Positions 21,500-62,346 of a stretch of 64,000 bases of DNA are shown one piece after another; the first letter of the stretch is position 1, and each line of letters begins with the position of its first letter. The translations under genes were made by a program, and so were the position numbers. This DNA comes from Anaerolineales bacterium (lineage in GTDB: Bacteria; Chloroflexota; Anaerolineae; Anaerolineales; DRKV01), in NCBI GenBank assembly GCA_024763355.1, contig JANTFR010000001.1:6259-70258 (forward strand), read 5' to 3'. The notes below the pieces were generated by a model. That model was not told the DNA's origin. It saw only the letters and a program-made list of their open reading frames with translations, and did not search any database.

Positions 21500-21587
21500 G
21501 ATGAACCGATGAACCGATGAACCGATGAACCGATGAACCGATGAACCGATGAACCGATGAACCGATGAACCGATGAACCGATGAACC
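21500..21587 (+). repeat. Perfect tandem array, 11 x GATGAACC
   Basis: 88 nt with no mismatch, preceded by GATGACGGGCGTAGACGGAGGACGACAGACC. Lies in the divergent spacer upstream of the acd promoter. Confidence 0.95.
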
Positions 21588-21645
21588 AATTGTAACCCAA
21601 ACCAAAGGGGGAAGAATGACACTTTCCACAGGCAGGCCTCGCGGC

Positions 21646-21651
21646 TATAAT
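21646..21651 (+). promoter_or_regulatory. Candidate -10 box (TATAAT) for the acyl-CoA dehydrogenase gene
   Basis: GGCTATAATGG 38 nt upstream of ATG 21690, followed by SD GAAGGAGAA. The -35 is poor (TTCCAC). Confidence 0.45.
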
Positions 21652-21689
21652 GGCGCACAAGGTCTATCGTTTGACGAAGGAGAACATTC

Positions 21690-22976: not shown

Positions 22977-23104
22977 GTCCTGTGTGGAAACGGTACCACG
23001 TCTCTATGTGAAGAAATCATGGACGAAAGAACGCAGATTTCCGTAGATTCCTTTTTCCGTCCATCTGTGTCCATCCGTGTCAAGGAGTTCAAGGAGGTGC
23101 CATT

Positions 23105-30843: not shown

Positions 30844-30845
30844 GG

Positions 30846-30905
30846 GGGAAAAATTTGCAAGCAGACAAGTGGGGAAGTGGGAAAGTAGGCAAGTTTGCAA
30901 GTGAG
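30846..30905 (-). repeat. CCACTT-family pyrimidine-rich leader repeats abutting the endonuclease III-like start codon
   Basis: Minus strand: CTCTCACTTGCAAACTTGCCTACTTTCCCACTTCCCCACTTGTCTGCTTGCAAATTTTTCCCC-ATG. CACTTGCAAACTT is identical to 46276-46288. Confidence 0.85.
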
Positions 30906-30942
30906 AGCGGGGCGCGGAGGCTGTGCTTTATGGCGGGTTCGT

Positions 30943-30991
30943 CATTCCGCATTCACCATTTTGCACTCTGCATTCCGCATTCTGCATTTTC
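30943..30991. repeat. 7 x heptamer array CATTNNG (minus strand CNNAATG / GAATGCG-type), abutting the asparaginase stop codon
   Basis: CATTCCG CATTCAC CATTTTG CACTCTG CATTCCG CATTCTG CATTTTC in constant 7-nt phase. Confidence 0.9.
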
Positions 30992-37417: not shown

Positions 37418-37556
37418 GGCGATTCTCTCCTTGTTTGTGACCCCATCCGGGCAAGGGAGGGGTGCGTTGATTGTACCAGTGTTTGTCATAACGCAAGGGA
37501 GCAGGAAAGAGTTCCCGGCGGCAATTCGGAGACACAGATGAGTACAGATGTTTTGT

Positions 37557-37606
37557 TTCGTGCCCATTCGTGTTTCTTCGTGTCCATTCGTGGACATTCG
37601 TGGACA
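37557..37606 (+). repeat. 5 x decamer array TTCGTGNNCA directly upstream of the pcrA -10 box
   Basis: TTCGTGCCCA TTCGTGTTTC TTCGTGTCCA TTCGTGGACA TTCGTGGACA, then CGTGC-TATAAT. Confidence 0.9.
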
Positions 37607-37611
37607 CGTGC

Positions 37612-37617
37612 TATAAT
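37612..37617 (+). promoter_or_regulatory. -10 box TATAAT 9 nt upstream of the pcrA ATG (near-leaderless transcript predicted)
   Basis: GCTATAATCACCGCGCTATG; no SD is possible in the 9-nt gap. Confidence 0.5.
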
Positions 37618-37626
37618 CACCGCGCT

Positions 37627-39783
37627 ATGGACATCCTGGCAGGTCTCAACATTCAACAGCAGCAGGCCGTCACCGCCGGGCTGGGCCCCGTCATCGTGCT
37701 TGCCGGCCCCGGTTCCGGCAAAACGCGCGTCCTCACCCACCGCATCGCCTACCTGATTGGCTATCTGGGGGCGCGCCCCTACAACATCCTGGCGGTGACC
37801 TTCACCAACAAGGCTGCCCGAGAGATGAACCGCCGGGTAGAAGACCTGCTCGGCGGACAGACGCGCGGCCTGACGGTGGGTACGTTTCACGCCTTCTGCG
37901 CCCGTCTGCTGCGCCGCGAGGCCGAACACTTGCCCGTGGACGCCAATTACGTCATCTTCGACGCCGACGACCAGATTGGACTCGTCAAACAGGCCCTCAA
38001 AGACCTCAATCTGGATGACAAACGCTACCGTCCCTACGGGGTGCACGCCGCCATCTCCAACGCCAAGAACGAATTGCGCGGTCCGGACGAATATCCGGTG
38101 CAAAATTACCGCGATGAAGTCGTCCGCCGCGTCTACGAGCAGTACCAGAAATTGCTCCTTGCCAGCAACGCCGTGGATTTCGACGACCTGCTGCTTTACA
38201 CCGCCCGTCTGCTGGAAATGCACCCCGCGGTGCGCGAGCGCTACGCCCGCCGCTTCGAGCACGTCCTGGTGGACGAATTTCAGGACACCAACATGGCGCA
38301 ATACAGCCTCCTGCGCCATCTGGCCTCCTTCCACGGCAACATTTTCGTGGTGGGTGACGCCGACCAGTCCATTTACCGCTGGCGGGGCGCAGATTACCGC
38401 AACGTGCTGCGCTTCGAGAAGGACTACCCCGACGCCCAGGTAATTTTGCTGGAACAAAACTACCGTTCCACGCAGACCATTTTAGACGTAGCGATGGCGG
38501 TCATTGACCAGAATCCGCACCGCACCCCCAAGAAACTCTTTACCGACCGCGGCAGCGGCCTTCCCGTGACCATCAAGGAAATCGCCACCGACCGCCAGGA
38601 AGCCCAGTACGTCATCGAGACGATTGCCTCCCTGATTGCCCGCCACAAGGCACAGCCCGGCGATTTCGCCGTCATGTACCGCACCAACGCCCAATCCCGT
38701 ATTTTGGAGGAAACCTTCCTGCAGGCCGGCCTGCCCTACAAAATCGTGGGGGCGCAGCGTTTCTACGGACGGCGGGAAATCAAGGACATGATTGCCTACC
38801 TGCGGCTGGTGCACAATCCGCACGATGAAGTCAGCCTGATGCGCGTCATCAACGTGCCTCGCCGCGGCATCGGGGCAAAAACCGTCGCCGCTTTGCGGAC
38901 TGCGGCGCAGAAGGCCGGCCTCTCGATGGGCGCGCTGCTTTTAGAACTGGCGCAGAACCCCGAATCGCCCCACGCGGCGGCCTTCAGCGGACGCGCCCTG
39001 GGACTGTTGCGCGCTTTTGGCGATGCTCTCGCCTCCTGGCGCGCCGCCGGCCTCTCCCCCCGCCCCCTGCTGGACCGCATTCTGGACGACATTGACTACC
39101 GTCCCTACATTGACGACGGCTCCGACGAAGGCTACAGCCGCTGGGAGAACGTGATGGAATTGCGCCGCCTGGCCGCCGAGCAGGACGAAGCCGGACTGGA
39201 AGCCTTTCTGGAGCAAATTGCCCTCGTCGCCGACCAGGATACCCTCGACGAAAAGAGCAACGTCCCTACCCTGCTGACCTTCCACGCCGCCAAAGGGTTG
39301 GAGTTTCCGATTGTCTTTCTCGTCGGCCTCAACGACGGCATCCTGCCTCACCGTCGTTCCTTCGACGACCCCGAAGCCATGATGGAGGAACGCCGTCTGT
39401 TCTACGTGGGAATCACCCGCGCCAAAGACCGCCTTTATCTGCTCTATTCGGAGGAGCGCTACACTTACGGATATCCCGATTACGCCGAACCATCCCGTTT
39501 TTTGGCGGATATCCCCGAAGATTTGCTCACCGATGGGAAAAAGAGAACCTCCCGCGGCCCGCGGCGGGCGCGGCAAACCCGTTGGGAATCCTCCTCCAAA
39601 AAATCCCGCCCTCCCTCCAAGCCCCGCTACGCTGCCGGTCAGCGGGTGCGGCATCCCAAATTCGGGGAGGGTCTCATCCTCAGCACCCGTCTCGACGGCG
39701 AAGACGAAATCCTGGATGTCTTCTTCGAGAACGTCGGCATGAAGCGCGTCATCGCCTCCCTGGCGCGTCTCGAAAGCGTCTAA
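37627..39783 (+). CDS. pcrA: ATP-dependent DNA helicase PcrA/UvrD
   Basis: LNIQQQQAVTAGLGPVIVLAGPGSGKTRVLTHRIAYL, VDEFQDTN, YRSTQTIL, VTFHAAKGLEFPIVFL, LFYVGITRAK. Start at the internal MDILAGL. Confidence 0.9.
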   Translation: MDILAGLNIQQQQAVTAGLGPVIVLAGPGSGKTRVLTHRIAYLIGYLGARPYNILAVTFTNKAAREMNRRVEDLLGGQTRGLTVGTFHAFCARLLRREAEHLPVDANYVIFDADDQIGLVKQALKDLNLDDKRYRPYGVHAAISNAKNELRGPDEYPVQNYRDEVVRRVYEQYQKLLLASNAVDFDDLLLYTARLLEMHPAVRERYARRFEHVLVDEFQDTNMAQYSLLRHLASFHGNIFVVGDADQSIYRWRGADYRNVLRFEKDYPDAQVILLEQNYRSTQTILDVAMAVIDQNPHRTPKKLFTDRGSGLPVTIKEIATDRQEAQYVIETIASLIARHKAQPGDFAVMYRTNAQSRILEETFLQAGLPYKIVGAQRFYGRREIKDMIAYLRLVHNPHDEVSLMRVINVPRRGIGAKTVAALRTAAQKAGLSMGALLLELAQNPESPHAAAFSGRALGLLRAFGDALASWRAAGLSPRPLLDRILDDIDYRPYIDDGSDEGYSRWENVMELRRLAAEQDEAGLEAFLEQIALVADQDTLDEKSNVPTLLTFHAAKGLEFPIVFLVGLNDGILPHRRSFDDPEAMMEERRLFYVGITRAKDRLYLLYSEERYTYGYPDYAEPSRFLADIPEDLLTDGKKRTSRGPRRARQTRWESSSKKSRPPSKPRYAAGQRVRHPKFGEGLILSTRLDGEDEILDVFFENVGMKRVIASLARLESV

Positions 39784-39798: not shown

Positions 39799-40296
39799 AT
39801 GTCTCCCGTCCTGCCTCCCAACGCCCTGGAAGTCATCAGCCACAGCGCCGAACAGACCCGCCGCGTAGGTGTGCGCCTGGGAACTTTGCTGCAAGCCGGC
39901 GACCTGATTTGTCTCCACGGCGACCTGGGCACGGGCAAGACGACCTTCGTGCAAGGCGTGGCCCGCGGCTGGGGCGCATACGACCCGGTGACCAGCCCGA
40001 CTTTTGTGCTCATCAACGTCTATCGCCGCACCGATGGCGGACAATTGTTCCACGTGGATGCCTACCGTCTCAGCGGCCCGCAAGAAGCCTGGGACCTCGA
40101 CCTGGATGCCTATCTGGAGCGCGGCCCCCTGGTGGTGGAGTGGGCGGAGCGCATTGACGAGGCCCTCCCCGCCGAGCGTCTAGACGTGGCCTTCACCTGG
40201 CGGGACGACACGCAACGCGACTTGCTTCTCACCGCCCGCGGCTCGCATTACGAAACCCTGCTCACCGAACTCCGTCGCCGCACCTTTGGGAGGTAG
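39799..40296 (+). CDS. tsaE: tRNA t6A37 biosynthesis ATPase TsaE
   Basis: LHGDLGTGKTTFVQGVARG and SPTFVLINVY, characteristic of TsaE/YjeE. Confidence 0.85.
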   Translation: MSPVLPPNALEVISHSAEQTRRVGVRLGTLLQAGDLICLHGDLGTGKTTFVQGVARGWGAYDPVTSPTFVLINVYRRTDGGQLFHVDAYRLSGPQEAWDLDLDAYLERGPLVVEWAERIDEALPAERLDVAFTWRDDTQRDLLLTARGSHYETLLTELRRRTFGR

Positions 40297-40416
40297 ACGA
40301 CAGACCACAGACCACGGACGACAGACGACAGACCGCGGACGACGGGCGACAAACCACGCGACCACCCGACCACCCGACTACCTGACCACGCGACTACCCG
40401 ACCACCCGACTACCTC
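40297..40416 (+). repeat. Micro-repeat array filling the entire tsaE-tsaB spacer (9 x 7-mer GACSACR, then 7 x 8-mer CNGACYAC)
   Basis: GACGACA GACCACA GACCACG GACGACA GACGACA GACCGCG GACGACG GGCGACA AACCACG, then CGACCAC CCGACCAC CCGACTAC CTGACCAC GCGACTAC CCGACCAC CCGACTAC CTCCC-ATG. Confidence 0.9.
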
Positions 40417-40418
40417 CC

Positions 40419-41087: not shown

Positions 41088-41109
41088 TGGACAATAGGCG
41101 GTGGACGGT

Positions 41110-41181
41110 GAACCAATGCAACCGATACAACCGATGTAACCAATGCAACCAATGCAACCAATCCAACCGATGCAACCACCT
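41110..41181 (+). repeat. 8 x 9-mer array (C/G/T)AACC(A/G)AT(G/A/C) in the tsaB-rimI spacer
   Basis: GAACCAATG CAACCGATA CAACCGATG TAACCAATG CAACCAATG CAACCAATC CAACCGATG CAACCACCT, preceded by GGCGGTGGACGGT. Contains several in-frame ATGs. Confidence 0.9.
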
Positions 41182-41199
41182 CCCCCCACCATCCGCCCC

Positions 41200-41688
41200 A
41201 TGACCGTCGAAGACATTCCGCAAGTGATGGCGGTGGACGAAGCCTCCTTCGCCATGCCCTGGCCGGAGCACGCTTACAAATTCGAGGTGCTGGAGAATCG
41301 CGTCTCCGTCGCCCTGGTAGCCGAAGCGCCGGAGAGCGGCCAGGTCATTGGTATGGTGGTGGTATGGGTCTTGCTCGACGAAGCGCACATCGCCACCATT
41401 GGCGTTCATCCCGCCTGGCGTCGCCGCGGCCTGGGAAGGCTACTGCTGGCCTCCGCTCTCATCGAGAGCATTCGGCGCGGGGCGACGACGGCAACCCTGG
41501 AAGTGCGGGTCAGCAACGAACCGGCTCAGGCGCTCTATCGCCAGTTCGGATTCGAGGTAGTGGGACGCCGACCCCGCTACTACAACGATAACAACGAAGA
41601 CGCCCTCCTGATGACCGCTTCCTCGCTGGACGAAACCTTCCTGCGCCAACAAACGGAGGCCCTGCCCTCCTCGATGGACTTTCGGTAG
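41200..41688 (+). CDS. rimI: Ribosomal-protein-alanine N-acetyltransferase (GNAT)
   Basis: IRPMTVEDIPQVMAVDEASF and the acetyl-CoA motif VHPAWRRRGLGRLLL. The start is ambiguous: in-frame ATGs at 41143, 41152, 41170 and 41200, the first three inside the repeat array. Confidence 0.75.
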   Translation: MTVEDIPQVMAVDEASFAMPWPEHAYKFEVLENRVSVALVAEAPESGQVIGMVVVWVLLDEAHIATIGVHPAWRRRGLGRLLLASALIESIRRGATTATLEVRVSNEPAQALYRQFGFEVVGRRPRYYNDNNEDALLMTASSLDETFLRQQTEALPSSMDFR

Positions 41689-42358: not shown

Positions 42359-42384
42359 GGAGACGCCGGGCGACAATGCCCTGT

Positions 42385-42452
42385 GAACCAATGAACCAAT
42401 GCAACTAATGCAACCGATGCAACTAATGAACTAATGAACTAACCAACCAATG
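42385..42452 (+). repeat. 8-/9-mer array (G/C)AAC(C/T)AATG running into the dehydrogenase start codon
   Basis: GAACCAATG AACCAATG CAACTAATG CAACCGATG CAACTAATG AACTAATG AACTAACC AACCAATG-AACCAA. The ATG at 42450 is part of the last unit. Confidence 0.9.
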
Positions 42453-43763
42453 AACCAAACTACGCTCCTCTCCAAAATCCAATCCAAAGACCTGCGCATC
42501 GTCGTGCTCGGCATGGGATACGTTGGCCTGCCGCTAGCGATGGTCTTTGCCGAGGCCGGTTTCGACGTCACCGGCGTTGACCCCATCGAAGAAAAAGTCG
42601 CCCGCCTCAATCGCGGCGAGAGTTACGTCAAGGATGTCCCCTCGGAGCAGGTCGCCCGCTGGGTGCAGGCCGGCACTTTTCGCGCCACCGCCGATTTCTC
42701 CGTCATCCGGGAGGCTGACGCGGTCAGCATCTGCGTCCCTACCCCGTTGCGGAAGACCGGCGACCCCGATTTGTCATTCATCATCTCGGCCACGGACGAA
42801 CTGGCGCGCTACGTCCACCCCGGCATGGTAGTCGTCCTGGAATCCACCACCTACCCCGGCACCACCCGCGAGATTCTGCTCCCCAAACTGGAAGCATCTG
42901 CCAATTTGAAAGTGGGCGAAAACTTCTTCCTGGCCTTCTCCCCGGAGCGCGTCGACCCCGGACGCGAGGACTGGACGACGGTCAACACCCCCAAAGTGAT
43001 GGGCGGCATCACCCCCGCCTGCACCGAAGTGGCCTCCGCCTGGTACGGACAGGCCATCCAGACCGTCGTGCCGGTCACTTCCGCCGAGGTAGCCGAAATG
43101 GCAAAACTGCTCGAAAACACCTTCCGGATGATAAACATCGGGCTGGTCAACGAACTGGCGCTGATGTGCGACCGTCTGGGCGTGGACGTGTGGGAAGTCA
43201 TTGAAGCCGCGGCCACCAAACCCTTCGGCTTCATGAAGTTCACCCCAGGCCCCGGCCTGGGCGGGCACTGCATCCCCATTGACCCGCTCTACCTCTCGTG
43301 GAAACTGCGCTCCCTCAACTACACCGCCAAATTCATCGAACTGGCATCCGAAATCAACACCGGCATGCCGCGCTACGTGGTCGGCAAGGTGCAGGACGCC
43401 CTCAACGAACATCGCAAACCGCTCAAAGGCAGCCGCGTGCTCGTTTTGGGGGCGGCTTACAAGCCCGATATTGACGACCTGCGCGAATCTCCCGCCCTGG
43501 ATGTGATTGGTCTCCTGGCGCAGAAGGGCGCCGAGGTCTCTTACCACGACCCCTACATCCCCCACTTCCGGCACGACGGCTTCACCATGCGCTCGGTGGA
43601 CGACCTGATGGAGGCGGTACACGCCGCCGACTGCGTGGTGATTGTCACCAACCACAGCGACTACGATTACGCCGCCATTCTGGAAAACGCCCGCCTCATC
43701 GTGGATACCCGCAACGCCCTCGGCCCCGCCGGGCGCAACAACCCCAAAGTAATCCGTCTCTGA
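42450..43763 (+). CDS. Nucleotide-sugar dehydrogenase (UDP-GlcNAc/ManNAc 6-dehydrogenase, WbpA/WecC-like)
   Basis: IVVLGMGYVGLPLAMVFAEAG, ICVPTPL, SPERVDPG, GLGGHCIPIDP. Confidence 0.85.
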   Translation: MNQTTLLSKIQSKDLRIVVLGMGYVGLPLAMVFAEAGFDVTGVDPIEEKVARLNRGESYVKDVPSEQVARWVQAGTFRATADFSVIREADAVSICVPTPLRKTGDPDLSFIISATDELARYVHPGMVVVLESTTYPGTTREILLPKLEASANLKVGENFFLAFSPERVDPGREDWTTVNTPKVMGGITPACTEVASAWYGQAIQTVVPVTSAEVAEMAKLLENTFRMINIGLVNELALMCDRLGVDVWEVIEAAATKPFGFMKFTPGPGLGGHCIPIDPLYLSWKLRSLNYTAKFIELASEINTGMPRYVVGKVQDALNEHRKPLKGSRVLVLGAAYKPDIDDLRESPALDVIGLLAQKGAEVSYHDPYIPHFRHDGFTMRSVDDLMEAVHAADCVVIVTNHSDYDYAAILENARLIVDTRNALGPAGRNNPKVIRL

Positions 43764-43767
43764 CCCC

Positions 43768-43872
43768 CCGTCACCCACCGCCCACCGCCCACCGTCAGCC
43801 CTTCAGCCGTCAGGCGTCAGGCATCAGCTACCGTCCACCGTCTACCATCAACCCTTCACCATTCAGCCACTC
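43768..43872 (+). repeat. About 15 x heptamer array (CCCACCG / GTCAGGC / ACCGTCY / ACCMTTC families) filling the dehydrogenase-epimerase spacer
   Basis: CCCGTCA CCCACCG CCCACCG CCCACCG TCAGCCC TTCAGCC GTCAGGC GTCAGGC ATCAGCT ACCGTCC ACCGTCT ACCATCA ACCCTTC ACCATTC AGCCACT. The complement of 43764-43790 fits a G3+N4 x4 quadruplex pattern. Confidence 0.9.
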
Positions 43873-43885
43873 TCCGGAGTTTTCC

Positions 43886-44863
43886 ATGTCCCGATATCTT
43901 CTCACTGGCGCCGCTGGCTTCATCGCCGCCCGCACGGGCGAAATGCTGCTCGAAAACGGCCACACCGTCTTTGGCGTGGACAACATCAACGACGCCTACG
44001 ACGTCCGTATGAAGCAGCACCGTCTGGAAAAACTGCAAACCTACCCCAATTTCACCTTCCGGCGGATGGATATCGCCGACAAGGAAGATGTCCTCTCCCT
44101 GGCGGAGCAGGCCCCCTTCGATGCGGTCATCAACCTGGCCGCCCGCGCCGGGGTGCGCGCCAGCGTCCAAAATCCCTGGGTGTACGTGGATACCAACCTG
44201 ACCGGCACCCTCAACCTGCTGGAGCTCAGCCAGCGCGCCGGCATCCCTAAATTCATCCTGGCCTCCACTTCCAGCATCTACGGGCAGGACGCCCCCCTCC
44301 CCACCCCGGAAACCGCCGACAGCAGCCGCCCTCTCCAGCCCTACGCGGCCAGCAAGAAGGCCGCCGAAGCCATGAGCCACGCCTATCACTACCTGTACGG
44401 CATTGACGTCAGCGTGGTGCGTTTCTTCACCGTCTACGGCCCGGCGGGACGCCCCGATATGTCCGTCTTCCGCTTCATCCGCTGGATTAGCGAGGGCGAA
44501 CCCCTGCACCTCAACGGGGACGGCAGCCAGTCCCGCGGCTTCACCTACGTGGACGACATCGCCCGCGGCGTGGTTCTCGCCCTCCAGCCGGTGGGCTACG
44601 AGATTTTCAACCTCGGCGGGCACGAAAACCTCACCATCAAAGAACTCATCGAGCGCATCGAGGCCCTCACGGGGCGCAAAGCGAACATCGTGCAGCACCC
44701 CTTTCCCCAGGCGGATATGAAAGCCAACCTGGCCGACATCAGCAAGGCGGGAAAGATGCTGGGCTGGGAGCCGGGCGTCAGCCTGGATGAGGGCCTGCGC
44801 CGCACGGTGGCATGGTACAACGAAAACCGCGCCTGGGCGAAGGAACTCTCGCTCAATGTTTGA
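43886..44863 (+). CDS. NAD-dependent sugar-nucleotide epimerase/dehydratase (UDP-glucuronate 4-epimerase-like)
   Basis: LLTGAAGFIAARTGEMLL (GxxGxxG) and YAASKKAAE (YxxxK). Confidence 0.85.
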   Translation: MSRYLLTGAAGFIAARTGEMLLENGHTVFGVDNINDAYDVRMKQHRLEKLQTYPNFTFRRMDIADKEDVLSLAEQAPFDAVINLAARAGVRASVQNPWVYVDTNLTGTLNLLELSQRAGIPKFILASTSSIYGQDAPLPTPETADSSRPLQPYAASKKAAEAMSHAYHYLYGIDVSVVRFFTVYGPAGRPDMSVFRFIRWISEGEPLHLNGDGSQSRGFTYVDDIARGVVLALQPVGYEIFNLGGHENLTIKELIERIEALTGRKANIVQHPFPQADMKANLADISKAGKMLGWEPGVSLDEGLRRTVAWYNENRAWAKELSLNV

Positions 44864-44946
44864 CCACGGATGACGGACCACGGACGACGGACGACTGACC
44901 GCGGACGACGGATGCCCCGCACGTCGCGCTCCGCACCCCGCACCCA
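44862..44946 (+). repeat. Heptamer array (GACSACG x7, then CCGCAC-type units) filling the epimerase-flippase spacer
   Basis: GACCACG GATGACG GACCACG GACGACG GACGACT GACCGCG GACGACG GATGCCC CGCACGT CGCGCTC CGCACCC CGCACCC-ATAC-GTG. Confidence 0.9.
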
Positions 44947-44949
44947 TAC

Positions 44950-46251
44950 GTGAACACCCTCCTGAGCCGCATCCTCAAAAACTCCGGTTATCTCTTCAGC
45001 GCCACGGGGATTACCGCCGCCCTGAGCATGGTGCAGGGCATCCTGGCAGCGCGCCTCTTGGGCGTGACCCAATTCGGCATGTTGGGGGTCATCACCATGT
45101 TTGCCACGGTGGTCAACAAACTGGCCTCCTTCCGCATGAACGAACTGGTGGTCAAATACGTCGCCCAGCGCACGGCGGAGGACGACCACCGCGGCGCGGC
45201 AACCGTCTTCAAGGCTGCCGTCCTGGTGGAAGGCGGCACCTCGCTGGTCGCCTTTGCCGTCCTGATGGCGCTTGCTCCCCTCGGAGCGCGCTACTTCGCC
45301 CACGACCCGGCCACCACTGCCTGGTTTCGACTCTACGGCGGCGGCATCATCCTTGCCAACCTGGTTTTCGAGAGCGGCACCGGGCTGCTCCAGATTGCCG
45401 ACCGCTTCCGGCGCATCGCCTTCATCCAGGTCGGCCAAAGCGTCTTGACCCTGCTGCTGATTAGCGCGGCCTACTGGAAGGGTGCAGGTCTCTTTGCGGT
45501 AGTGCTGGCCTACATGACGGGGAAGGCCCTCGGCTCCCTGGGGATGACCGCGGCCGCTCTTTGGGAAGCGCGTACCCGCTGGGGGGGCGGTTGGTTCCGT
45601 CTCCCTTTGAGGGGCTTGCGCTCCCAATGGCGGGAACTGGCCCGTTTCGCGGTCAGCACCAACCTGAGCGGCACGCTCAGTCTCATCAACAAAGACAGCG
45701 AACTCCTGTGGGTTTCCCTGCTGCGCTCTCCCACCGAGGCTGGCTACTACAAACTGGCGCTGGCGCTTGCCAACCTCGTCCAGATGCCCATCAGCCCCCT
45801 GCCGCGGGCCACCTACCCCGAACTCTCCCGCGAGGTCGCCCGCCGCAACTGGCGCAACGTGCGCTACGTGCTGAAACAAGGTTCGCGAGTAGCCTTTGCA
45901 TACACCGCGGCGGTCGTTGCGGGGCTGGCGCTCCTGGGACGTCCGTTGATTGCCGCCCTGTACACACCGGAATACCTGCCCGCTTACCCCGCTCTGCTTA
46001 TCCTGCTGGCCGGTTTCCTGGTCGCCAACACTTTTTACTGGAACCGGGTCGCCCTGCTCTCCCTGGGACGCGCCGACCTGCCCGCCAAAATCAATTTCGG
46101 GTTGGCGCTCTTCAAAGTTGCGGGCGTCCTGTTGCTGGTTCCCATTTGGGGCTACCTGGCGAATGCCGGTCTGCTGGCCGCCTCCTACATCATCGGCGTT
46201 GCTCTGGCCGTGACACTTTTCTACCGCCAGTTGAAGAAGATGGATGGCTGA
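44950..46251 (+). CDS. Polysaccharide flippase (Wzx / MOP superfamily), about 12 TM
   Basis: 433 aa, highly hydrophobic, N-terminus LLSRILKNSGYLFSATGITAALSMVQGILAARLLG, typical of oligosaccharide flippases. GTG start. Confidence 0.75.
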   Translation: MNTLLSRILKNSGYLFSATGITAALSMVQGILAARLLGVTQFGMLGVITMFATVVNKLASFRMNELVVKYVAQRTAEDDHRGAATVFKAAVLVEGGTSLVAFAVLMALAPLGARYFAHDPATTAWFRLYGGGIILANLVFESGTGLLQIADRFRRIAFIQVGQSVLTLLLISAAYWKGAGLFAVVLAYMTGKALGSLGMTAAALWEARTRWGGGWFRLPLRGLRSQWRELARFAVSTNLSGTLSLINKDSELLWVSLLRSPTEAGYYKLALALANLVQMPISPLPRATYPELSREVARRNWRNVRYVLKQGSRVAFAYTAAVVAGLALLGRPLIAALYTPEYLPAYPALLILLAGFLVANTFYWNRVALLSLGRADLPAKINFGLALFKVAGVLLLVPIWGYLANAGLLAASYIIGVALAVTLFYRQLKKMDG

Positions 46252-46321
46252 CGTACCACGTACCTCGTACTTGCCCACTTGCAAACTTTCCACTTGCTCA
46301 CTTTCCCACTTGCAAACTTTC
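46252..46321 (+). repeat. CGTACYN x3, then 3 x about 16-mer CCACTTGCAAACTTTC-family repeats abutting the GT4 start codon
   Basis: CGTACCA CGTACCT CGTACTT GCCCACTTGCAAACTTTC CACTTGCTCACTTTC CCACTTGCAAACTTTC CTC-ATG. Confidence 0.9.
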
Positions 46322-46324
46322 CTC

Positions 46325-48209: not shown

Positions 48210-48220
48210 ACCTCCTCCAT

Positions 48221-48250
48221 CCACGAATGGTCACGAATGAGCACGAATAG
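48221..48250 (-). repeat. 3 x decamer (minus strand CATTCGTGNN), same TTCGTG family as 37557-37606, facing the LOG gene
   Basis: Plus strand CCACGAATGG TCACGAATGA GCACGAATAG; minus strand reads CTATTCGTGC TCATTCGTGA CCATTCGTGG just upstream of the SD. Confidence 0.85.
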
Positions 48251-48257
48251 CATCAAC

Positions 48258-48313
48258 GCACTTGGCACTTGGCACTTGACACGTGATACATGATACGTGA
48301 TACGTGACACGTG
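48258..48313 (+). repeat. 8 x heptamer array (GCACTTG x3, then AYACRTG x5) upstream of the TPR gene promoter
   Basis: GCACTTG GCACTTG GCACTTG ACACGTG ATACATG ATACGTG ATACGTG ACACGTG in constant phase. Confidence 0.9.
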
Positions 48314-48331
48314 ATTATACCCCTCGGCAGG

Positions 48332-48337
48332 TATAAT
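48332..48337 (+). promoter_or_regulatory. -10 box TATAAT exactly 6 nt upstream of the TPR gene ATG (leaderless mRNA predicted)
   Basis: CAGGTATAATCTCATCATG. Confidence 0.5.
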
Positions 48338-48343
48338 CTCATC

Positions 48344-49732
48344 ATGTCTCGCCGCCGCGCCCTCCTTTTCGTTTTCCTGATTTTCCTCCTCGGAGACTTT
48401 GTCTGGTGGCAGGCCGGCGCGCAAAACCGCGCCGCCCGCCGCGCCCTGGCACAGCGTGGCGAAGGCTATTCCCTGAGCGAACTGACCACCCTGGCACAGA
48501 CCGTCCCCGCGCCTGCCCTGTGGGAGGTGGCCGCCTGGCGAGCGGAGGAACGGGAACAATTCTCCATCGCGCGGGCCTGTCTGCTGCGCGCCCGCGCCGA
48601 GGGGATGCTCTCCTCCCAGGGGTACGGGCTGCTGGGCGACCTCACCGCCGAAACGGGCAACCTGGAAACCGCAGTCTCCTTCTGGGAGCAGGCTGTGGAA
48701 CAGGACGCCCCCCAGGCGGACATCTGGCGGCGCAAACTGGCGCAAGTGGCCGAAAGCCGCGGGGATTGGGAGGCCGCCCTGGAGCACTACCGCATTCTCT
48801 CGCAGCACGCCCCCGCAGATGCAGAACTTCTCTGCAAGGTAGCCACGCTGCTTTCCGTCCTGCACCCCGCCGAAGCCCCCGCATATCTGGAACTCGCTGC
48901 CGCCTCGTCTTCTCCCTGCGCCGCGTTGGCCGCATCCCTGCGCGATGCCCTCGTGCAGGGTAGTTTGCAGGACGACCCCGCTTACATCGCCGTGCTGACG
49001 GGACGAGCATTGGGGGCGCATGGGGAATGGGCGCTGGCCGCCGAAGCCTTCCGCCGCGCCGTGGAGCGCAATCCCGATTACGCCGAAGGTTGGGCTTTCT
49101 GGGGACAGGCCCTCGAAACCCTCGGCCTGGACGGAAGTCGCGCCCTGGAAACCGCGCTGCGTCTCGACCCCGCTTCGCTCACCGCGGCCAGTTTGAACGC
49201 CCTCTACTGGCGCAACCGCGGGCAACCCGAAAAAGCGCTGGTCTATTTCTACCGCGCCGCCCGCAGCGAGCCGGAAAACCCGCTGTGGGAGATGGAAATC
49301 GGGGCGACTCTGGCGCAGATGGGGAATATCTCCAATGCGCTGGAACACTACCGCAAAGCGACCTCCCTGGCGTCCAACGACCCCGCTCCCTGGCGCGCCC
49401 TGGCGGAGTTTTGCCTGCAATACGGTCTGGAAATCAAGGAAACCGCCCTGCCCGCCGCCCGCCAAAGCGTTCTGCTGGCCCCTCAGGAGGCCGCCTCCCC
49501 GGAAATCCTGGGACGCGTGTACCTGCGCCTGGGCGACCTGACCAGCGCCCGCCGCCTCGCCCGCCGCGCCCTCGCCCTGGATTCCGGTTACACCCCGGCC
49601 TACCTGGATTTAGGGCTGATTGCATCCCTGCAAGGGGACGACGCCCTTGCCCGCCGCATGTACCAGACCGTTATCTCCCTCGCTCCGGATTCCCCCTGGG
49701 CTGCCCAGGCCCGCCGCCTGCTGGGGCCATAG
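48344..49732 (+). CDS. Tetratricopeptide-repeat protein with N-terminal TM/signal anchor
   Basis: N-terminus RRRALLFVFLIFLLGDFVWW, then repeated A/L/Y-rich 34-aa units (e.g. GWAFWGQALETLGLDGSRALETALRLDP). Confidence 0.7.
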   Translation: MSRRRALLFVFLIFLLGDFVWWQAGAQNRAARRALAQRGEGYSLSELTTLAQTVPAPALWEVAAWRAEEREQFSIARACLLRARAEGMLSSQGYGLLGDLTAETGNLETAVSFWEQAVEQDAPQADIWRRKLAQVAESRGDWEAALEHYRILSQHAPADAELLCKVATLLSVLHPAEAPAYLELAAASSSPCAALAASLRDALVQGSLQDDPAYIAVLTGRALGAHGEWALAAEAFRRAVERNPDYAEGWAFWGQALETLGLDGSRALETALRLDPASLTAASLNALYWRNRGQPEKALVYFYRAARSEPENPLWEMEIGATLAQMGNISNALEHYRKATSLASNDPAPWRALAEFCLQYGLEIKETALPAARQSVLLAPQEAASPEILGRVYLRLGDLTSARRLARRALALDSGYTPAYLDLGLIASLQGDDALARRMYQTVISLAPDSPWAAQARRLLGP

Positions 49733-52195: not shown

Positions 52196-52204
52196 ACGGT
52201 GGAT

Positions 52205-52239
52205 AGTGCGGAGTGCGGAGTGCGGGGTGCGACGTGCGG
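52205..52239 (+). repeat. 5 x heptamer array (A/G/C)GTGCG(G/A)
   Basis: AGTGCGG AGTGCGG AGTGCGG GGTGCGA CGTGCGG, preceded by GGACGGTAGACGGTGGAT, which starts inside the acpS 3' end and spans its stop codon. Confidence 0.9.
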
Positions 52240-52270
52240 TAGACTACCTGACCACCCGCCCCTGACTAAT

Positions 52271-52450
52271 CCGACCAATTCGACCAATCCGACCACTTCG
52301 ACCAATCCGACCACTTCGACCACTCCGACCACTCCGACCACTCTGACCAATCAGACCACTTCGACCACTTCGACCACTCCGACCAATCAGACCACTTCGA
52401 CCACCCCGACCAATTCGACCAATCAGACCACTCCGACCAATCAGACCAAC
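52271..52450 (+). repeat. 20 x 9-mer array, consensus YNGACCAMT, ending 6 nt before the HerA-like ATG
   Basis: CCGACCAAT TCGACCAAT CCGACCACT TCGACCAAT CCGACCACT TCGACCACT CCGACCACT CCGACCACT CTGACCAAT CAGACCACT TCGACCACT TCGACCACT CCGACCAAT CAGACCACT TCGACCACC CCGACCAAT TCGACCAAT CAGACCACT CCGACCAAT CAGACCAAC. Confidence 0.95.
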
Positions 52451-52456
52451 CGACCC

Positions 52457-54145
52457 ATGAACCAACTCGCCTACATCATCGGCGGGGGACTGAAAGAGAA
52501 CTTTCGCGCCCGCCTCAACGTCTCACCGCAGGAAGTACAGGAGGGGGCTTTTGTCGTCATCGAGAGCGGGGAATGGCTGTTCTACGGGCTAGTCACCGAC
52601 ATCCAGTTGGGGGCCACCGACCCTCGTTTTGCGGATGAGCAAACCGAAGACCGCCTGCCCCCCGTGCTGGCGCGCGCCCTCCACGGGCAGACCCTCTACA
52701 CCAATCTGGAAATTCTGCCCGCCCTGATGCTGGAACGCGGTCCGCAGGAGGAGGCGGCATTTGCCCGCTGGCTGGATGAAATCGAGAGCGGCTTGCGGGA
52801 GAAGCCGCGCCCCATGCCGGTCAAGACCGTCCCGCCGCACCACGCGCCCGTGCGCCTGGCAACCGAGGGCGACATCGCCGAAATTTTCGGCAAGGCCGAG
52901 AAGAGCAACTTCGTCATCGGGCACACCCGCGAGCAGGGACATCCTGTGCGCGTCAACCTGGAGAAGTTCGTCCAGCGTTCCGCCGGCATCTTCGGGGCCA
53001 CCGGCACGGGCAAATCCTTTCTGACGCGTCTCGTCCTGGCGGGGTTGATGAAGCACAACGTGGCCTCCGTGCTGGTCTTCGACATGCACAACGAATACGG
53101 CTTCGACGACACCGCCTCGGATACGGGAGCGCGGGTCGTCGGGCTGCGTACCAAATTCCGGAGCAAGGTGCGCGTCGTCGGGCTGGGGGCGGGAGCCACC
53201 ATCCGGGGGCAGGTTCCCGATTTCAACCTGGAAATCCCGATGAGCGCCATCCGCCCGGCGGATATCGAGATGCTGACGCGGGAACTCAATCTCAAAGAGA
53301 CCACCCCTACCACGCTGGAAGCCCTGGTGCATACCTTCGGGGCGCAGGGCTGGTTCAAGGCCTTCAAGGAAATGACCACCGAAGTGTGGACGGAGGAGGA
53401 AACAGGCAAGAAATTCCCCGCGCCGGGCAGCGTGGCAGCCTGGGCCAACAAGCACGGCGTCAACGTGATGGCTGCCGAGGGGCTGCACAGCAAATTGCGC
53501 CGCCTGTTCAACAAACCCTACATCGTGGAAAACCCCGCCAGCGACGGCATCGCCGAGGTGATTAAGGCCCTGGAGGCCGGGCAGCACGTCATCCTCTCCT
53601 TCGGTAAACACGAGAGCGACCTGGATTACCTCCTGGTCAGTAACCTGCTGACCCGACACATCCGCGAGCGCTGGGAGCAGACCACCAACCGCTTCCGCAC
53701 CCACGGAGAGCAGGAGCCGCGTCCACTGGTGATTGCCGTCGAGGAGGCCCACAAACTGCTCAATCGCGAGATGGCCGCCCAGACGACTTTCAGCACGATT
53801 GCCCGCGAACTGCGCAAGTACTACGTCACCCTGCTGATTATTGACCAGCGCCCCTCGCAGATTTACGACGAGGTCATGTCCCAACTGGGGACGCGCATCT
53901 CCGGCTGGCTGGGGGACGAGGACGACATCCGGGCGGTGCTCTCCGGCCTGGCAGGACGGGATGCCCTGCGGGGGATGCTGGCGCGTTTGCAGCCCAAGGA
54001 GGAAGTCCTGCTCCTGGGGTGGGGCGTCCCCATGCCGCTGCCGGTGCGCTCCCGCCGCTACGACGATGCCTTTTGGAAGGAATTACTGGGGGGGAAAAGC
54101 GGGGGAGATACGGTGGGGAAAACGATAAAGGAATTAGGGTTCTAA
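52457..54145 (+). CDS. HerA/FtsK-like (DUF87-type) P-loop ATPase
   Basis: Walker A GIFGATGTGKSFLTRLVLAG, Walker B-like PLVIAVEEAHKLL, YYVTLLIIDQRPSQI. Start at MNQLAYIIGGG (ATG 52457); the track ORF start at 52199 reads through the repeat array. Confidence 0.75.
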   Translation: MNQLAYIIGGGLKENFRARLNVSPQEVQEGAFVVIESGEWLFYGLVTDIQLGATDPRFADEQTEDRLPPVLARALHGQTLYTNLEILPALMLERGPQEEAAFARWLDEIESGLREKPRPMPVKTVPPHHAPVRLATEGDIAEIFGKAEKSNFVIGHTREQGHPVRVNLEKFVQRSAGIFGATGTGKSFLTRLVLAGLMKHNVASVLVFDMHNEYGFDDTASDTGARVVGLRTKFRSKVRVVGLGAGATIRGQVPDFNLEIPMSAIRPADIEMLTRELNLKETTPTTLEALVHTFGAQGWFKAFKEMTTEVWTEEETGKKFPAPGSVAAWANKHGVNVMAAEGLHSKLRRLFNKPYIVENPASDGIAEVIKALEAGQHVILSFGKHESDLDYLLVSNLLTRHIRERWEQTTNRFRTHGEQEPRPLVIAVEEAHKLLNREMAAQTTFSTIARELRKYYVTLLIIDQRPSQIYDEVMSQLGTRISGWLGDEDDIRAVLSGLAGRDALRGMLARLQPKEEVLLLGWGVPMPLPVRSRRYDDAFWKELLGGKSGGDTVGKTIKELGF

Positions 54146-54251
54146 TGCGCTCAGAACCTGTAAGCGCAGGCAGGCGCGCTTACCCCGTCGCCGGTTTCTC
54201 CCTCGTCAGGTCGGAGAATTCCGAATCTTTTCTCACTTTCAAGTAGTTTGT

Positions 54252-54257
54252 TACAAT
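54252..54257 (+). promoter_or_regulatory. -10 box TACAAT exactly 6 nt upstream of the methyltransferase ATG (leaderless mRNA predicted)
   Basis: GTTTGTTACAATCAAGGCATG; no SD. Confidence 0.45.
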
Positions 54258-54263
54258 CAAGGC

Positions 54264-55136
54264 ATGAACGAACCAATCATCCGCCCGCTGCTTGGTGACT
54301 GCCGCGAGGTGCTCCGTACCCTGGACGACGAATCGATTGACCTGATTGTTACTTCGCCGCCCTACGCCGACCAGCGCAAAAACACCTACGGGGGCATCCA
54401 TCCCGACGATTATGTGGCCTGGTTCCTGCCGATTGCGGCGGAATTGCAACGCGTCCTCAAACCCACGGGAACTTTCATCCTGAACATCAAAGAACGCGTT
54501 GTCAAGGGGGAACGCCACACCTACGTCCTCGAGTTGATACTTGCCATGCGCCGCCAGGGGTGGCTCTGGACGGAAGAATTCATCTGGCACAAAAAGAATT
54601 CCTACCCCGGCAAGTGGCCTAATCGTTTTCGGGATGCCTGGGAACGCTTGCTGCAATTCAACAAACAACGGCAGTTCCACATGTACCAGGAAGCCGTGAT
54701 GGTACCCATGGGGGACTGGGCCAGGAAACGCCTCAAGAATCTGAGCGATACGGACAAAATTCGGGACGAATCACGGGCCGGCAGCGGCTTTGGGAAACGG
54801 GTTGCCAACTGGGTGGGACGCGAGAAGGTGTATCCCACCAACGTCCTGCACATGGCTACCGAGACACGCAACCGCAACCACAGCGCGGCTTTCCCCGAAG
54901 CGCTTCCGGCATGGTTTATCAAACTGTTTACTCAGGAGGGCGACTGGGTGCTGGACCCCTTCATGGGTTCCGGCACAACTCTGCGGGCGGCGTACCGCCT
55001 GCGCCGCAACGCGATTGGGATTGACATCATGGAAACCTATTACGAGCAGGTCAAGGCCAGTTTGAAAGACCTGCAAACCCCACAACTCTCCCTTTTCGAG
55101 GCACAGGAAGCCTATGAACCCCCTCGACCTGAATGA
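54264..55136 (+). CDS. Beta-class DNA methyltransferase (N4-cytosine or N6-adenine; SPPY suggests m4C)
   Basis: Motif IV DLIVTSPPYADQR near the N-terminus and motif I VLDPFMGSGTTLRAA near the C-terminus (IV-before-I order). Confidence 0.85.
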   Translation: MNEPIIRPLLGDCREVLRTLDDESIDLIVTSPPYADQRKNTYGGIHPDDYVAWFLPIAAELQRVLKPTGTFILNIKERVVKGERHTYVLELILAMRRQGWLWTEEFIWHKKNSYPGKWPNRFRDAWERLLQFNKQRQFHMYQEAVMVPMGDWARKRLKNLSDTDKIRDESRAGSGFGKRVANWVGREKVYPTNVLHMATETRNRNHSAAFPEALPAWFIKLFTQEGDWVLDPFMGSGTTLRAAYRLRRNAIGIDIMETYYEQVKASLKDLQTPQLSLFEAQEAYEPPRPE

Positions 55137-55842
55137 TGTGCGCGATTTCGTGGCCGAAAACATTGGAGCCTTCCACAACCGCCGCCTGGAAAGACTCCAA
55201 TCCCTGCAACTCCGGCAAATTCTGAAGCGTAAGAACCCGTACCTGTTCCGCGCCAAGAACATCGATACCTCCCAAGCACTGGTAAGGGAGTTGCTGGACG
55301 CGCATCTCTCCTCGCAAGAGGAAACCATCTTCGGCCAATTTCTGGAAGAATTAGCCGTTTTCGTATGTCAGCGCGTTTACGGTGGACGAAAATCCACCGC
55401 CGAAGGGATTGACCTGGAATTCGAGAAGGACGGCGTGTACTACATCGTGGCCGTCAAGTCCGGCCCCAACTGGGGCAACAGCAGCCAGATTGCCCGCATG
55501 AAAAACAACTTCAAACAGGCCCGCCGGCGGCTGCGTCAAAACCGGCAAATGGGCAATGTCGTGGCCGTCAACGGGTGCTGTTACGGAAAAGACAACAAGC
55601 CGGACAAAGGCGATTACCTGAAATTGTGCGGGCAGCGCTTTTGGGAGTTCATTTCCGGCAACGACCGTCTCTACCTCGAAATCATCGAGCCGTTGGGGCA
55701 CCAGGCGGAAGAGCGCAACGCGGCTTTTCGGCGGGAATACGCCCGCATCGTCAACCTGTTCACAATGGACTTCGGAGCCGAATTCTGCACCGAAGGTCTG
55801 ATTGACTGGGAAAAACTGGTGCGTTTCAATTCTGCCCTCTGA
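55114..55842 (+). CDS. Putative type II restriction endonuclease (TdeIII/PmeII-like by recollection)
   Basis: 23-nt overlap with the methyltransferase gene. LKRKNPYLFRAKN, GIDLEFEKDGVYYIVAVKSGPNWGNSSQ (candidate D..ExK nuclease core). Family name is from memory only. Confidence 0.55.
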   Translation: MNPLDLNDVRDFVAENIGAFHNRRLERLQSLQLRQILKRKNPYLFRAKNIDTSQALVRELLDAHLSSQEETIFGQFLEELAVFVCQRVYGGRKSTAEGIDLEFEKDGVYYIVAVKSGPNWGNSSQIARMKNNFKQARRRLRQNRQMGNVVAVNGCCYGKDNKPDKGDYLKLCGQRFWEFISGNDRLYLEIIEPLGHQAEERNAAFRREYARIVNLFTMDFGAEFCTEGLIDWEKLVRFNSAL

Positions 55843-62319: not shown

Positions 62320-62346
62320 TTAGCACTCTCTTTTTCTGAGTGCTAA
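62320..62346. promoter_or_regulatory. CIRCE operator (HrcA binding site)
   Basis: TTAGCACTC-tctttttct-GAGTGCTAA, an exact match to the CIRCE consensus TTAGCACTC-N9-GAGTGCTAA, 92 nt upstream of the groEL ATG. Confidence 0.9.

Follow-up and report, generated by a model that had tools for sequence, protein, structure and literature searches.

Tandem repeats of the heptamer class have been reported from intergenic regions since 1990, initially in cyanobacteria and later in Xanthomonas and Beggiatoaceae, and to our knowledge no function has been established for them. The cyanobacterial representatives are short tandemly repeated repetitive (STRR) heptamers, and the long simple sequence repeats (SSR) of prokaryotes have units of 5-11 nt. 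The mycobacterial interspersed repetitive units (MIRU) are intercistronic repeats of about 46-100 bp, which carry small open reading frames (ORFs) overlapping the stop codon on one side and the start codon on the other; the omega leader of tobacco mosaic virus is G-free and CAA-rich and contains 8-nt direct repeats. Here we analyze arrays of 7-10-nt tandem units in a stretch of 64,000 nt (60.6% GC) from a bacterium of the Anaerolineales (Chloroflexota). The whole stretch is referred to as the window. The arrays came to notice in four consecutive spacers of a polysaccharide gene cluster at 42359-46324, where an initial annotation, made from the letters alone, had seen repeat families and a lack of Shine-Dalgarno (SD) sequences.

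Three described systems are close enough for a detailed comparison. Direct repeats of TAACTGA occur in marine Beggiatoaceae, in some cyanobacteria and in Bacteroidetes (MacGregor 2015, PMC4679880). This is a single unit with 2-6 copies per set; the downstream genes are unrelated in function, and the spacers that carry it have a canonical SD in about 10% of cases versus 25% genome-wide (PMC4679880). Binding of S1, Csp or CsrA with a role in translation has been proposed for these repeats, but only proposed, as has a regulatory network (PMC4679880). The GGGNATC / GGGGAYT heptamer repeats of Xanthomonas and Nostoc are defined by their G-tracts, with a preference for four units (Rehm 2015, PMC4692102). 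Just downstream of stop codons their G-rich strand is the coding one, and just upstream of start codons it is the non-coding one; the repeats favor spacers between co-directional ORFs, are not tied to surface or phase-variable genes and occur in matching spacers of related species, with wide variation in length and sequence (PMC4692102). Finally, CA-repeat 5' tails enhance translation in E. coli, with a maximum effect at 16-18 nt (Sterk 2018, PMC5934652).

In the literature that we searched, arrays of this kind are not described for Chloroflexi or Anaerolineae. We file the arrays of the window under the known heptamer-class intergenic repeats of unexplained function, for which the phylum Chloroflexota is new. 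On balance we consider it probable that the four spacers sample a population of short tandem repeats that is peculiar to the lineage and spread over the whole genome, with an origin, a spread, a selective filter and a relation to translation that are set out below as four steps of one reading.

Tandem arrays and their position rule

Arrays were called with Tandem Repeats Finder (TRF) and counted if they had a period of 5-12 and at least 2.8 copies. TRF returned 31 rows for the window and 0-7 for ten Markov shuffles. Arrays cover 19.5% of the intergenic bases of the window but only 0.2% of its coding bases; at least 13 spacers in the 64 kb are filled by them, with at least 15 different unit families. 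A period of 7 is the commonest in the window and its close relatives (43 arrays), followed by 8 (25), 9 (11) and 10 (5). Of 64 co-directional spacers 30 hold arrays, as do 7 of 10 divergent ones and 1 of 6 convergent ones. The genes downstream have unrelated functions and include tsaB, rimI, sugar-nucleotide enzymes, glycosyltransferases, helicases, a HhH-GPD (endonuclease III-like) gene and herA.

Pfam identified TsaE, TsaB, RimI, UDG, UDP-glucose dehydrogenase, a NAD-dependent epimerase, a Polysacc_synt flippase and a GT4 glycosyltransferase. Start codons were fixed by three criteria, namely the first in-frame start after the upstream stop, the onset of the Pfam domain and the lengths of homologues; Pfam and homologue lengths upheld the gene identities and starts given earlier. 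The four spacers at 42359-46324 proved to be short-period tandem arrays with the units that had been listed for them (TRF):

42359-42449, plus strand: spacer between UDG and UDP-glucose dehydrogenase; no SD; several upstream AUGs give small overlapping ORFs
42384-42458, plus strand: (AACCAATG / AACTAATGC)n array, period 8/9, about 9 copies; the last unit contains the dehydrogenase ATG 42450
43764-43885, plus strand: dehydrogenase/epimerase spacer of C-rich heptamers; GGAG at 43876-43879, 6 nt before ATG 43886
43774-43794, plus strand: CCCACCG x3 in the dehydrogenase/epimerase spacer
43792-43828, plus strand: CCGTCAG x5.1, then ACCGTCY units, same spacer
43764-43790, minus (template) strand: G-quadruplex-pattern motif GGGCGGTGGGCGGTGGGTGACGGGGGG, from CCCACCG x3 and a C6 run
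44864-44949, plus strand: epimerase/flippase spacer of T-poor heptamers from the stop codon; no SD; GTG start 44950
44862-44912, plus strand: GACGACG x7.3 (GACGGAC/GACCACG heptamers) in the epimerase/flippase spacer
44915-44945, plus strand: CCCCGCA x4.4, reaching the flippase GTG
46252-46324, plus strand: flippase/GT4 spacer; no SD; ATG 46325
46251-46270, plus strand: ACGTACC x2.9 in the flippase/GT4 spacer
46269-46322, plus strand: 16-mer CCACTTGCAAACTTTC x3.4, up to the GT4 ATG

It had been claimed that each spacer is built from a different family. This holds within the polysaccharide cluster but not across the window, where families recur at 19097, 19204, 30867, 40296 and 41111. The AACCAATG(C) family is found at 19097, 41111 and 42384, the GACGGAC family at 19204, 40296 and 44862, and CCACTTGC-type units at 30867 and 46269; these three families and CACCGTC each occur in 2-4 spacers.

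The arrays follow a rule of position. Base composition was determined for 29 array-bearing co-directional spacers from the window and the related loci L081, L083, L084 and L087. The last 30 nt before the start codon contain on average 8% G and 50% C and are G-poor in 29 of 29 spacers; the first 30 nt after the stop codon contain 30% G and 13% T. In many spacers this stop-proximal stretch consists of purine-rich heptamers in tandem, the first of them directly at the stop codon, as in TAG-ACGGTGGACGG, TGA-CGGACGATGGACG and TGA-AAGTTTGCAAGTGG. One and the same family may even run in either direction, depending on where it stands: before starts we find CCACTTGC, after stops its complement GCAAGTGG; the pair CACCGTC/GACGGTG behaves likewise, and CCACTTGCAAACTTTC, which precedes the GT4 start in the window, has its complement after the TsaE stop in L083. 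Units of the AACCAATG family read in the sense direction before starts, and in the reverse one (TTGGTTGS), together with GTCCGTC heptamers, over about 400 nt of the distal 5' untranslated region (UTR) of the helicase gene in L208; the last ~100 nt before this helicase start are C-rich again. The position rule is best read as selection near the start codon, because a uniform mutational bias, coupled to transcription or replication, cannot flip the polarity within one spacer. The occurrence of arrays in divergent promoter regions, in G/T-rich distal 5' UTRs and, as purine-rich units, after stops argues that they are a general intergenic phenomenon and not a translation leader as such.

The low secondary structure that had been expected for these leaders was borne out by folding predictions. 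For the region from -60 to +30 the mean minimum free energy (MFE) is -9.7 kcal/mol for array-preceded starts versus about -19.6 for other genes (-19.5 for genes with an SD and -19.8 kcal/mol for SD-less genes without an array). Predicted accessibility between -20 and +10 is 0.73 for array-preceded starts versus 0.50 and 0.57 in the same two groups. When the leader was swapped for its reverse complement the MFE fell from -9.7 to -26 kcal/mol and the accessibility from 0.73 to 0.42. The array leaders are predicted to be unstructured as well as G-poor, and the property depends on their orientation. The fold of whole spacers was not more stable than that of shuffles of matched composition (z from -2.1 to +1.3), which indicates that the low structure stems from composition and not from a designed fold.

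Several other identities for the spacer content were rejected. Rfam gave no match anywhere in the window; this result and the fold z-scores rule out a structured RNA or a hairpin that joins stop and start codons. A riboswitch, leader or attenuator is likewise rejected, in view of the missing Rfam match, the absence of a conserved fold and the fact that orthologous spacers share no 8-mers (0%) at about 90% coding identity. Promoter-like and terminator-like sites in the spacers between 37.3 and 52.6 kb are not enriched over shuffles, and promoters or terminators were dismissed as the spacer content on these counts.

The remaining arrays of the window are the following:

40297-40418 (array 40295-40415), plus strand: TsaE/TsaB spacer; GACGACA/GACCACA heptamers, then ACCACCCG octamers to ATG 40419
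41088-41199, plus strand: TsaB/RimI spacer; AACCAATGC x7.6 at 41111-41178; RimI start 41200 set by homology
52196-52456 (array 52205-52455), plus strand: ACPS/HerA spacer; AGTGCGG x5, then GACCAATCC/GACCACTCC 9-mers x20 to ATG 52457
19107-19300 (array 19097-19289), minus strand: spacer between a UvrD-like helicase and GT4; ATG 19106; in sense order GACGGTG/GACGGAC heptamers, GACTACCYG units and TGCAACCAA x9.6 to ATG 19106
21437-21689, minus strand: probable 5' UTR of a UvrD-like helicase, in a spacer common with the divergent acyl-CoA dehydrogenase gene; in order, a conserved TTACAAT, (TCATCGGT) x11.4 at 21497-21587, a C-rich CCACTT-type tract and TTG 21436
30844-30991 (array 30867-31008), minus strand: asparaginase II/HhH-GPD spacer; ATG 30843; on the sense strand the stop is followed by purine-rich GAATGCR heptamers and these by TCCCACTT / CTTGCAAA units
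37418-37626, divergent spacer: DUF4349/UvrD; TTCGTGTCCA / TTCGTGGACA 10-mers at 37557-37606
48210-48343 (array 48222-48315), divergent spacer: LOG-like/TPR; CACGAATGAG x3.2, GCACTTG x3.6 and TGATACG x5.6
23059-23081: further array, ending just before the SD of gene 23105

The 8-mer array at 21497-21587 has 100% identity between its units. On the minus strand, the array of the LOG-like/TPR spacer ends just short of a strong GGAGGAGG before the ATG of the gene at 48209. In the DUF4349/UvrD spacer an extended -10 element (TGcTATAAT, 37609-37617) lies just downstream of the 10-mers, and the ATG 37627 of UvrD looks leaderless. The alternation of TTCGTGTCCA and TTCGTGGACA creates operator-like TGTCCA-N4-TGGACA palindromes (~37575-37600) directly upstream of this -10 box. 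A scan of two array-bearing divergent spacers for inverted repeats of at least 10 nt found none; the TGTCCA-N4-TGGACA palindrome fell outside that minimum.

Some arrays keep a reading frame open. The 9-mer array before RimI (41143-41200) has in-frame upstream ATGs that would add an N-terminal extension of MQP repeats, whereas the lengths of homologues place the start at 41200. The HerA ORF is open from GTG 52199 through the whole 9-mer x20 array (ORF 52199-54145), and the lengths of homologues place the start at 52457. Arrays of this kind are likely to mislead gene callers by ORFs that stay open through 9-mers and by false N-termini at RimI and GT4, and they cause contig breaks (L082). In the UDG/dehydrogenase spacer the AACTAATG units form a chain of small ORFs (42376-42408, 42408-42434 and 42434-42442) with overlapping UAAUG stop-start junctions. 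Between the end of the chain and the dehydrogenase ATG are 7 nt, and a GGGAG right behind the UDG stop precedes the first AUG of the chain by 13 nt. The chain may serve as a termination-reinitiation relay, or it may simply follow from the unit sequence by chance.

Shine-Dalgarno sequences and array turnover among relatives

An SD was scored when at least 4 consecutive bases of AGGAGGT ended 4-13 nt before the start. The anti-SD of the 16S rRNA was taken as canonical, in view of the GGAGG-type motifs found at about half of the genes. The initial annotation had listed tsaB, rimI, the dehydrogenase, the flippase, both GT4 genes, the HhH-GPD gene and herA as array-preceded genes without an SD, with the epimerase as the one that carries GGAG. 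This list is correct in full, and the UvrD-like helicase with TTG 21436 joins it. The counterpart of the claim, that genes without arrays have strong SDs, did not survive: 18-19 of the 41-44 array-free genes of the window (~43%) lack an SD. In addition, at two genes that had been counted as array-free with a strong SD (48209 and 23105) an array ends just before the SD.

We tested the association of arrays with missing SDs within the window. Among genes with at least 30% array in the last 30 nt, 8 of 9 are SD-less versus 19 of 44 others (Fisher p=0.024). With a 60-nt definition and refined starts the numbers are 9 of 12 versus 18 of 41 (p=0.10). The association is found with the narrower definition, not with the wider one; the link is real but weak, and it depends on the definition. 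Part of it arises by construction, because non-SD units that reach the ATG leave an SD no room.

To place the arrays in an evolutionary frame, syntenic relatives were collected with a protein search for the epimerase, which gave a graded series of loci; a helicase search added L208 and L209. The closest set (L081, L208) has 96% amino-acid identity to the window and 95.4% nt identity in the epimerase gene. A middle set (L083, L084) has 91-93% amino-acid and about 90% nt identity, and a more distant set (L085, L086, L209) 86-87% and about 84%, respectively; L087 has 84% amino-acid identity.

Arrays occupy matching spacers in the window, L081, L083 and L084, where the position is kept and the sequence is not. 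L081 and L208 keep the unit families of the window in arrays that are 1.4-4.6 times longer; three spacers of the window and L081 measure 122 vs 316, 86 vs 218 and 91 vs 213 nt. The families of L083 and L084 are different: at orthologous spacers they have 0% of 8-mers in common with the window, a complete turnover of units at about 10% coding divergence. Between spacers that are not orthologous, whether of one genome or of two, 8-mer containment is 3-13%, against a chance value for this length that we roughly estimate, without having computed it, at <1%. In L085, L086 and L209 the spacers are 0-82 nt long and hold no arrays, and the arrays are derived relative to these array-free relatives. The longest array is the 536-nt RimI/dehydrogenase spacer of L087 (2078-2613), composed of (GGAAAGT) x15 and (CCAACTAY) x54; its length comes from short reads and has to be read with caution. 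L082 is a second assembly of the L081 locus; it is identical, shows no copy-number difference and has its contig end inside arrays.

Loci further away are mostly without arrays. Sixty-two of 81 scanned sequences (80 more distant Anaerolineales loci and the window) are array-free, and in a scan of GTDB species representatives with UDP-glucose dehydrogenase the closest loci, at most 78% identical in protein, were mostly array-free as well. A few unrelated Anaerolineales lineages (L020, L067, L078, L042) bear arrays with other units. Manual inspection of L067 found G-poor sense-strand arrays in the very same dehydrogenase/epimerase and epimerase/flippase spacers. An ORF-based count of orientations over the distant array-bearing loci gave 12 vs 12, a crude measure with spurious ORFs on both strands. 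A metagenome scan for (AACCRATGN)x3, made with no control pattern, returned at least 120 contigs (L088-L207) of 21-67% GC. The matches were mostly in-frame coding 9-mers from unrelated organisms (collagen-like G-T-N/G-T-D or P-M-Q); in a few contigs of 45-47% GC (WLWE, WLWF, WLWH) the pattern is intergenic and stands right before ORF starts.

The relatives also bear on the order of SD loss and array gain. Among them, 21 of 22 genes with an array within 30 nt of the start have no SD, and 19 of 32 genes in array-free loci are SD-less. In the array-free relatives L085, L086 and L209, an SD is missing from 10 of the 11 orthologues of genes that an array precedes in the window; these orthologues stand behind spacers of 0-82 nt that are C-rich and G-poor. 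These orthologues, together with the ~43% of array-free window genes without an SD, argue that SD-independence mostly preceded the arrays, and the arrays appear not to be the cause of the missing SDs.

Individual genes show how arrays and SDs coexist. The epimerase keeps its GGAG in the window, L085, L086 and L087; in L081, L083 and L084 an array extends to the ATG and the SD is missing. Similarly, herA has a GGGAG in L086 and no SD behind the arrays of the window, L083 and L084. UDG has a GGAGG in every relative and never an array. At genes that use an SD the array is either absent (UDG) or ends before the SD (48209, 23105 and the epimerase of the window).

Two further observations concern initiation. 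Three starts in the window are apparently leaderless, with a TATAAT/TACAAT box 6-10 nt before the ATG: UvrD (37609-37627), TPR (48325-48344) and a N6/N4 methyltransferase (54246-54264). Such starts would be a second SD-free route of initiation in this organism. In L083 (9916-9992) and L084 (5486-5557) the dehydrogenase/epimerase array has the unit CCTCCTAA / AACCTCCT. This unit equals the anti-SD-like ACCUCCU (reverse complement AGGAGGTT), with ~10 repeats in the mRNA leader.

The clade amounts to a natural experiment, in which the same operons are found array-free (L085, L086, L209), with one set of families (window, L081, L208) and with another set (L083, L084). The three states let the order of SD loss and array gain be read off directly, and they supply matched sets of leaders for translation assays with no design work.

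Origin of the arrays and alternative explanations

The reading that we favor would begin with replication slippage, which would create the arrays and alter their length from a repertoire of unit families common to many loci. Comparison with the relatives shows where they expanded: in short, C-rich spacers between cistrons, in 5' UTRs and in divergent promoter regions, all present beforehand, with arrays now filling the space from stop codon to start codon. They would be transcribed within polycistronic mRNAs, where selection would act mainly as a filter; the pattern from which we infer this filter is that the 30-60 nt before the start stay G-poor and probably unfolded and that the array stops short of any SD in use. 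As for translation, the genes would already have been SD-independent on unstructured C-rich leaders before the arrays came. The arrays would be compatible with this mode and may modestly reinforce it, but probably did not create it.

SD-independent initiation on C/A-rich leaders had been put forward as a working hypothesis for the array-preceded genes. The predicted unfolded, G-poor leaders and the precedent in E. coli (PMC5934652) speak for such initiation, whereas the 10 of 11 SD-less array-free orthologues speak against arrays as its cause; by analogy the mode is plausible for these genes in general.

Several points weigh against the favored reading. Slippage alone leaves the recurrence of families at non-orthologous spacers (3-13% of 8-mers) unexplained, for which inter-locus exchange or convergent seeding is possible, and also the purine-rich, T-poor heptamers that start exactly at stops. 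The SD losses at the epimerase and herA fit a functional substitution by the array at least as well as a passive tolerance. Furthermore, the loci of the relatives are orthologous and the counts across them are not independent; short-read assemblies may misestimate array lengths; and the whole analysis is computational, with array transcription, operon structure and initiation mode all deduced.

A stronger role in translation would follow if start-proximal arrays were adaptive standby or enhancer elements that recruit ribosomes without an SD, for example via S1 as the initial annotation had suggested, and whose copy number tunes the translation of genes within operons. Array-preceded start regions are strongly and orientation-dependently unstructured in the predictions, their last 30 nt are invariably G-poor, and the two losses of an SD, at the epimerase and at herA, coincide with arrays that extend to the ATG. 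There is also precedent in the length-dependent gain in translation from CA-repeat 5' tails in E. coli (PMC5934652) and in the TAACTGA repeats of Beggiatoaceae, which are alike in placement and SD scarcity and have led to the same proposal (PMC4679880). However, the orthologues manage without SD and without arrays, the array lengths (up to 316 and 536 nt) are far above the 16-18 nt optimum of CA tails, and arrays also occur in promoter regions, in G/T-rich distal 5' UTRs and, as purine-rich units, after stops. Moreover, AACCAATG arrays put 5-8 competing AUGs into an SD-free, unstructured context. We therefore regard a role as adaptive enhancers as doubtful, although it deserves to be kept in mind. 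Unlikely, too, is an extended form of it in which repeats exert a two-module intercistronic control, with a G-depleted standby tuned by copy number and a purine-rich module at the stop (e.g. for post-termination ribosome handling), that arose independently in Chloroflexota, Cyanobacteria, Beggiatoaceae and Xanthomonas; if true, it would give STRR-type repeats a function.

The units could also bind a lineage-specific RNA- or DNA-binding protein, in which case the array-preceded genes would form a regulatory network. A limited repertoire of families common to the non-orthologous spacers of a genome, the patchy distribution across lineages and the operator-like half-sites in some divergent-spacer units (TGTCCA-N4-TGGACA, ~37575-37600) would fit such a protein. 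With at least 15 families in 64 kb at periods of 7-10 nt, a complete turnover of units at orthologous spacers of ~90% identical relatives, functionally incoherent downstream genes and no conserved structure, we consider it quite improbable. It is very unlikely that the C-rich tracts are Rho-loading (rut-like) sites, i.e. attenuators within the operon that set downstream expression: many arrays or halves of arrays are purine-rich or G/T-rich on the sense strand and array-free relatives run the same operons, even though the start-proximal halves (50% C, 8% G, predicted unfolded, 60-500 nt) agree with the textbook picture of rut sites and intrinsic terminators are not enriched in the spacers. Phase variation, in which copy number would switch polysaccharide genes on and off, draws on the 2-3-fold difference in copy number between 95%-identical relatives and on the downstream genes that make surface polysaccharide. 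Yet the arrays are non-coding and for the most part do not separate a -35 from a -10 element, no reading frame can be shifted by units of 7-10 nt in a spacer that is not translated, and housekeeping genes (tsaB, rimI, helicases, HhH-GPD, herA) are preceded as often as surface genes; contingency loci are extremely unlikely here. Least credible of all is a regulation of transcription by G-quadruplex or i-motif DNA from the G/C-asymmetric arrays. The canonical pattern noticed on the template strand at 43764-43790 is present, and G-quadruplex formation in vitro is on record for the GGGNATC repeats of Xanthomonas/Nostoc (PMC4692102). Against this, the number of such motifs in the window is 9, versus 8.4 +/- 2.9 expected by chance, and an enrichment was rejected on this frequency. 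Most families have no GGG/CCC runs at all (AACCAATG, GACGGAC, CCACTTGC, TCATCGGT), and we treat the motif as a by-product of the CCCACCG heptamers.

Some loci of the window outside the arrays deserve mention. A canonical CIRCE operator, TTAGCACTC-N9-GAGTGCTAA at 62320-62346, lies about 90 nt upstream of ORF 62438, a putative groEL with a strong AAAGGAG SD. At 54264-55842 is a type II restriction-modification pair, with the N6_N4 methyltransferase gene overlapping an EcoO109I-like endonuclease gene (annotation from L086). A bacterial eRF1-like (baeRF) gene at 9780-10880 adjoins an HtrA-type protease and DnaJ (annotation from L208 and L209). The region of ~250-300 nt upstream of dnaJ is kept in 3 of 3 lineages (window 13070-13371, L208 18125-18384, L209 17870-18121). 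It contains TTGACT-N17-TACAAT and a long leader, is unlike the array spacers and has no Rfam match at the gathering threshold; it may be a conserved regulatory leader.

Comparison with known repeat systems

Some familiar classes can be set aside. The arrays are not phase-variable contingency repeats, since they lie in untranslated spacers (0.2% coding) and the downstream genes are mostly housekeeping genes. Nor are they CRISPR, repetitive extragenic palindromes or bacterial interspersed mosaic elements (REP/BIME) or miniature inverted-repeat transposable elements (MITE): their 7-10-nt units run head to tail with no intervening spacers, and no inverted repeats of at least 10 nt occur in the two divergent spacers. 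The mycobacterial MIRU are likewise tandem, intercistronic in operons, oriented with transcription and strain-variable in copy number, but the units described here are only 7-10 nt long.

The CA/AU-rich enhancers and standby sites share with the arrays a G-poor, C/A-rich, repetitive and predicted-unfolded leader directly before the start, from which SD-free initiation would proceed here. In contrast to the arrays, they are 16-70 nt long and their function has been shown experimentally; the arrays can be hundreds of nt long and are present, too, at places with no start codon downstream. The TAACTGA system resembles ours in that forward-oriented repeats abut start codons and SDs are mostly absent (here in 8 of 9 genes of the window and 21 of 22 of the relatives). 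It differs in that neither strand of the window contains TAACTGA, and in the many families, up to ~60 copies and fast turnover found here.

The GGGNATC repeats come closer in their placement. Their strand polarity is also found in our spacers (30% G after the stop and 8% G before the start), which lie mostly between co-directional ORFs, have matching but variable counterparts in relatives and show no tie to surface genes. On the other hand, GGGNATC does not occur in tandem here, G-tracts are absent from most units, a single array has the G-quadruplex pattern and the motif occurs at chance frequency; divergent spacers, too, often carry arrays (7 of 10). The arrays of the window and the heptamers of Xanthomonas and Nostoc have in common a position rule, G-poor before starts and purine-rich after stops.

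The best agreement is with the STRR/long-SSR class. Like the members of this class, the arrays consist of head-to-tail units of about 7 nt, with several families per genome at dispersed non-coding loci that include intercistronic ones, and they are lineage-specific and belong to filamentous bacteria, the host lineage being filamentous Chloroflexota. The window has tandem units of 7-10 nt, with 7 as the commonest length, at no fewer than 13 mainly non-coding loci that have families in common. The strict STRR1-3 of heterocystous cyanobacteria (CCCCAGT, TTGGTCA and CAACAGT) do not occur in tandem in this Anaerolineales host, and, unlike in STRR, periods of 8-10 nt are also common here and the arrays fill spacers as two-part composites. 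What distinguishes the arrays of the window within this class is the large number of unit families, the two-part composites that fill whole spacers and the complete turnover at about 10% coding divergence.

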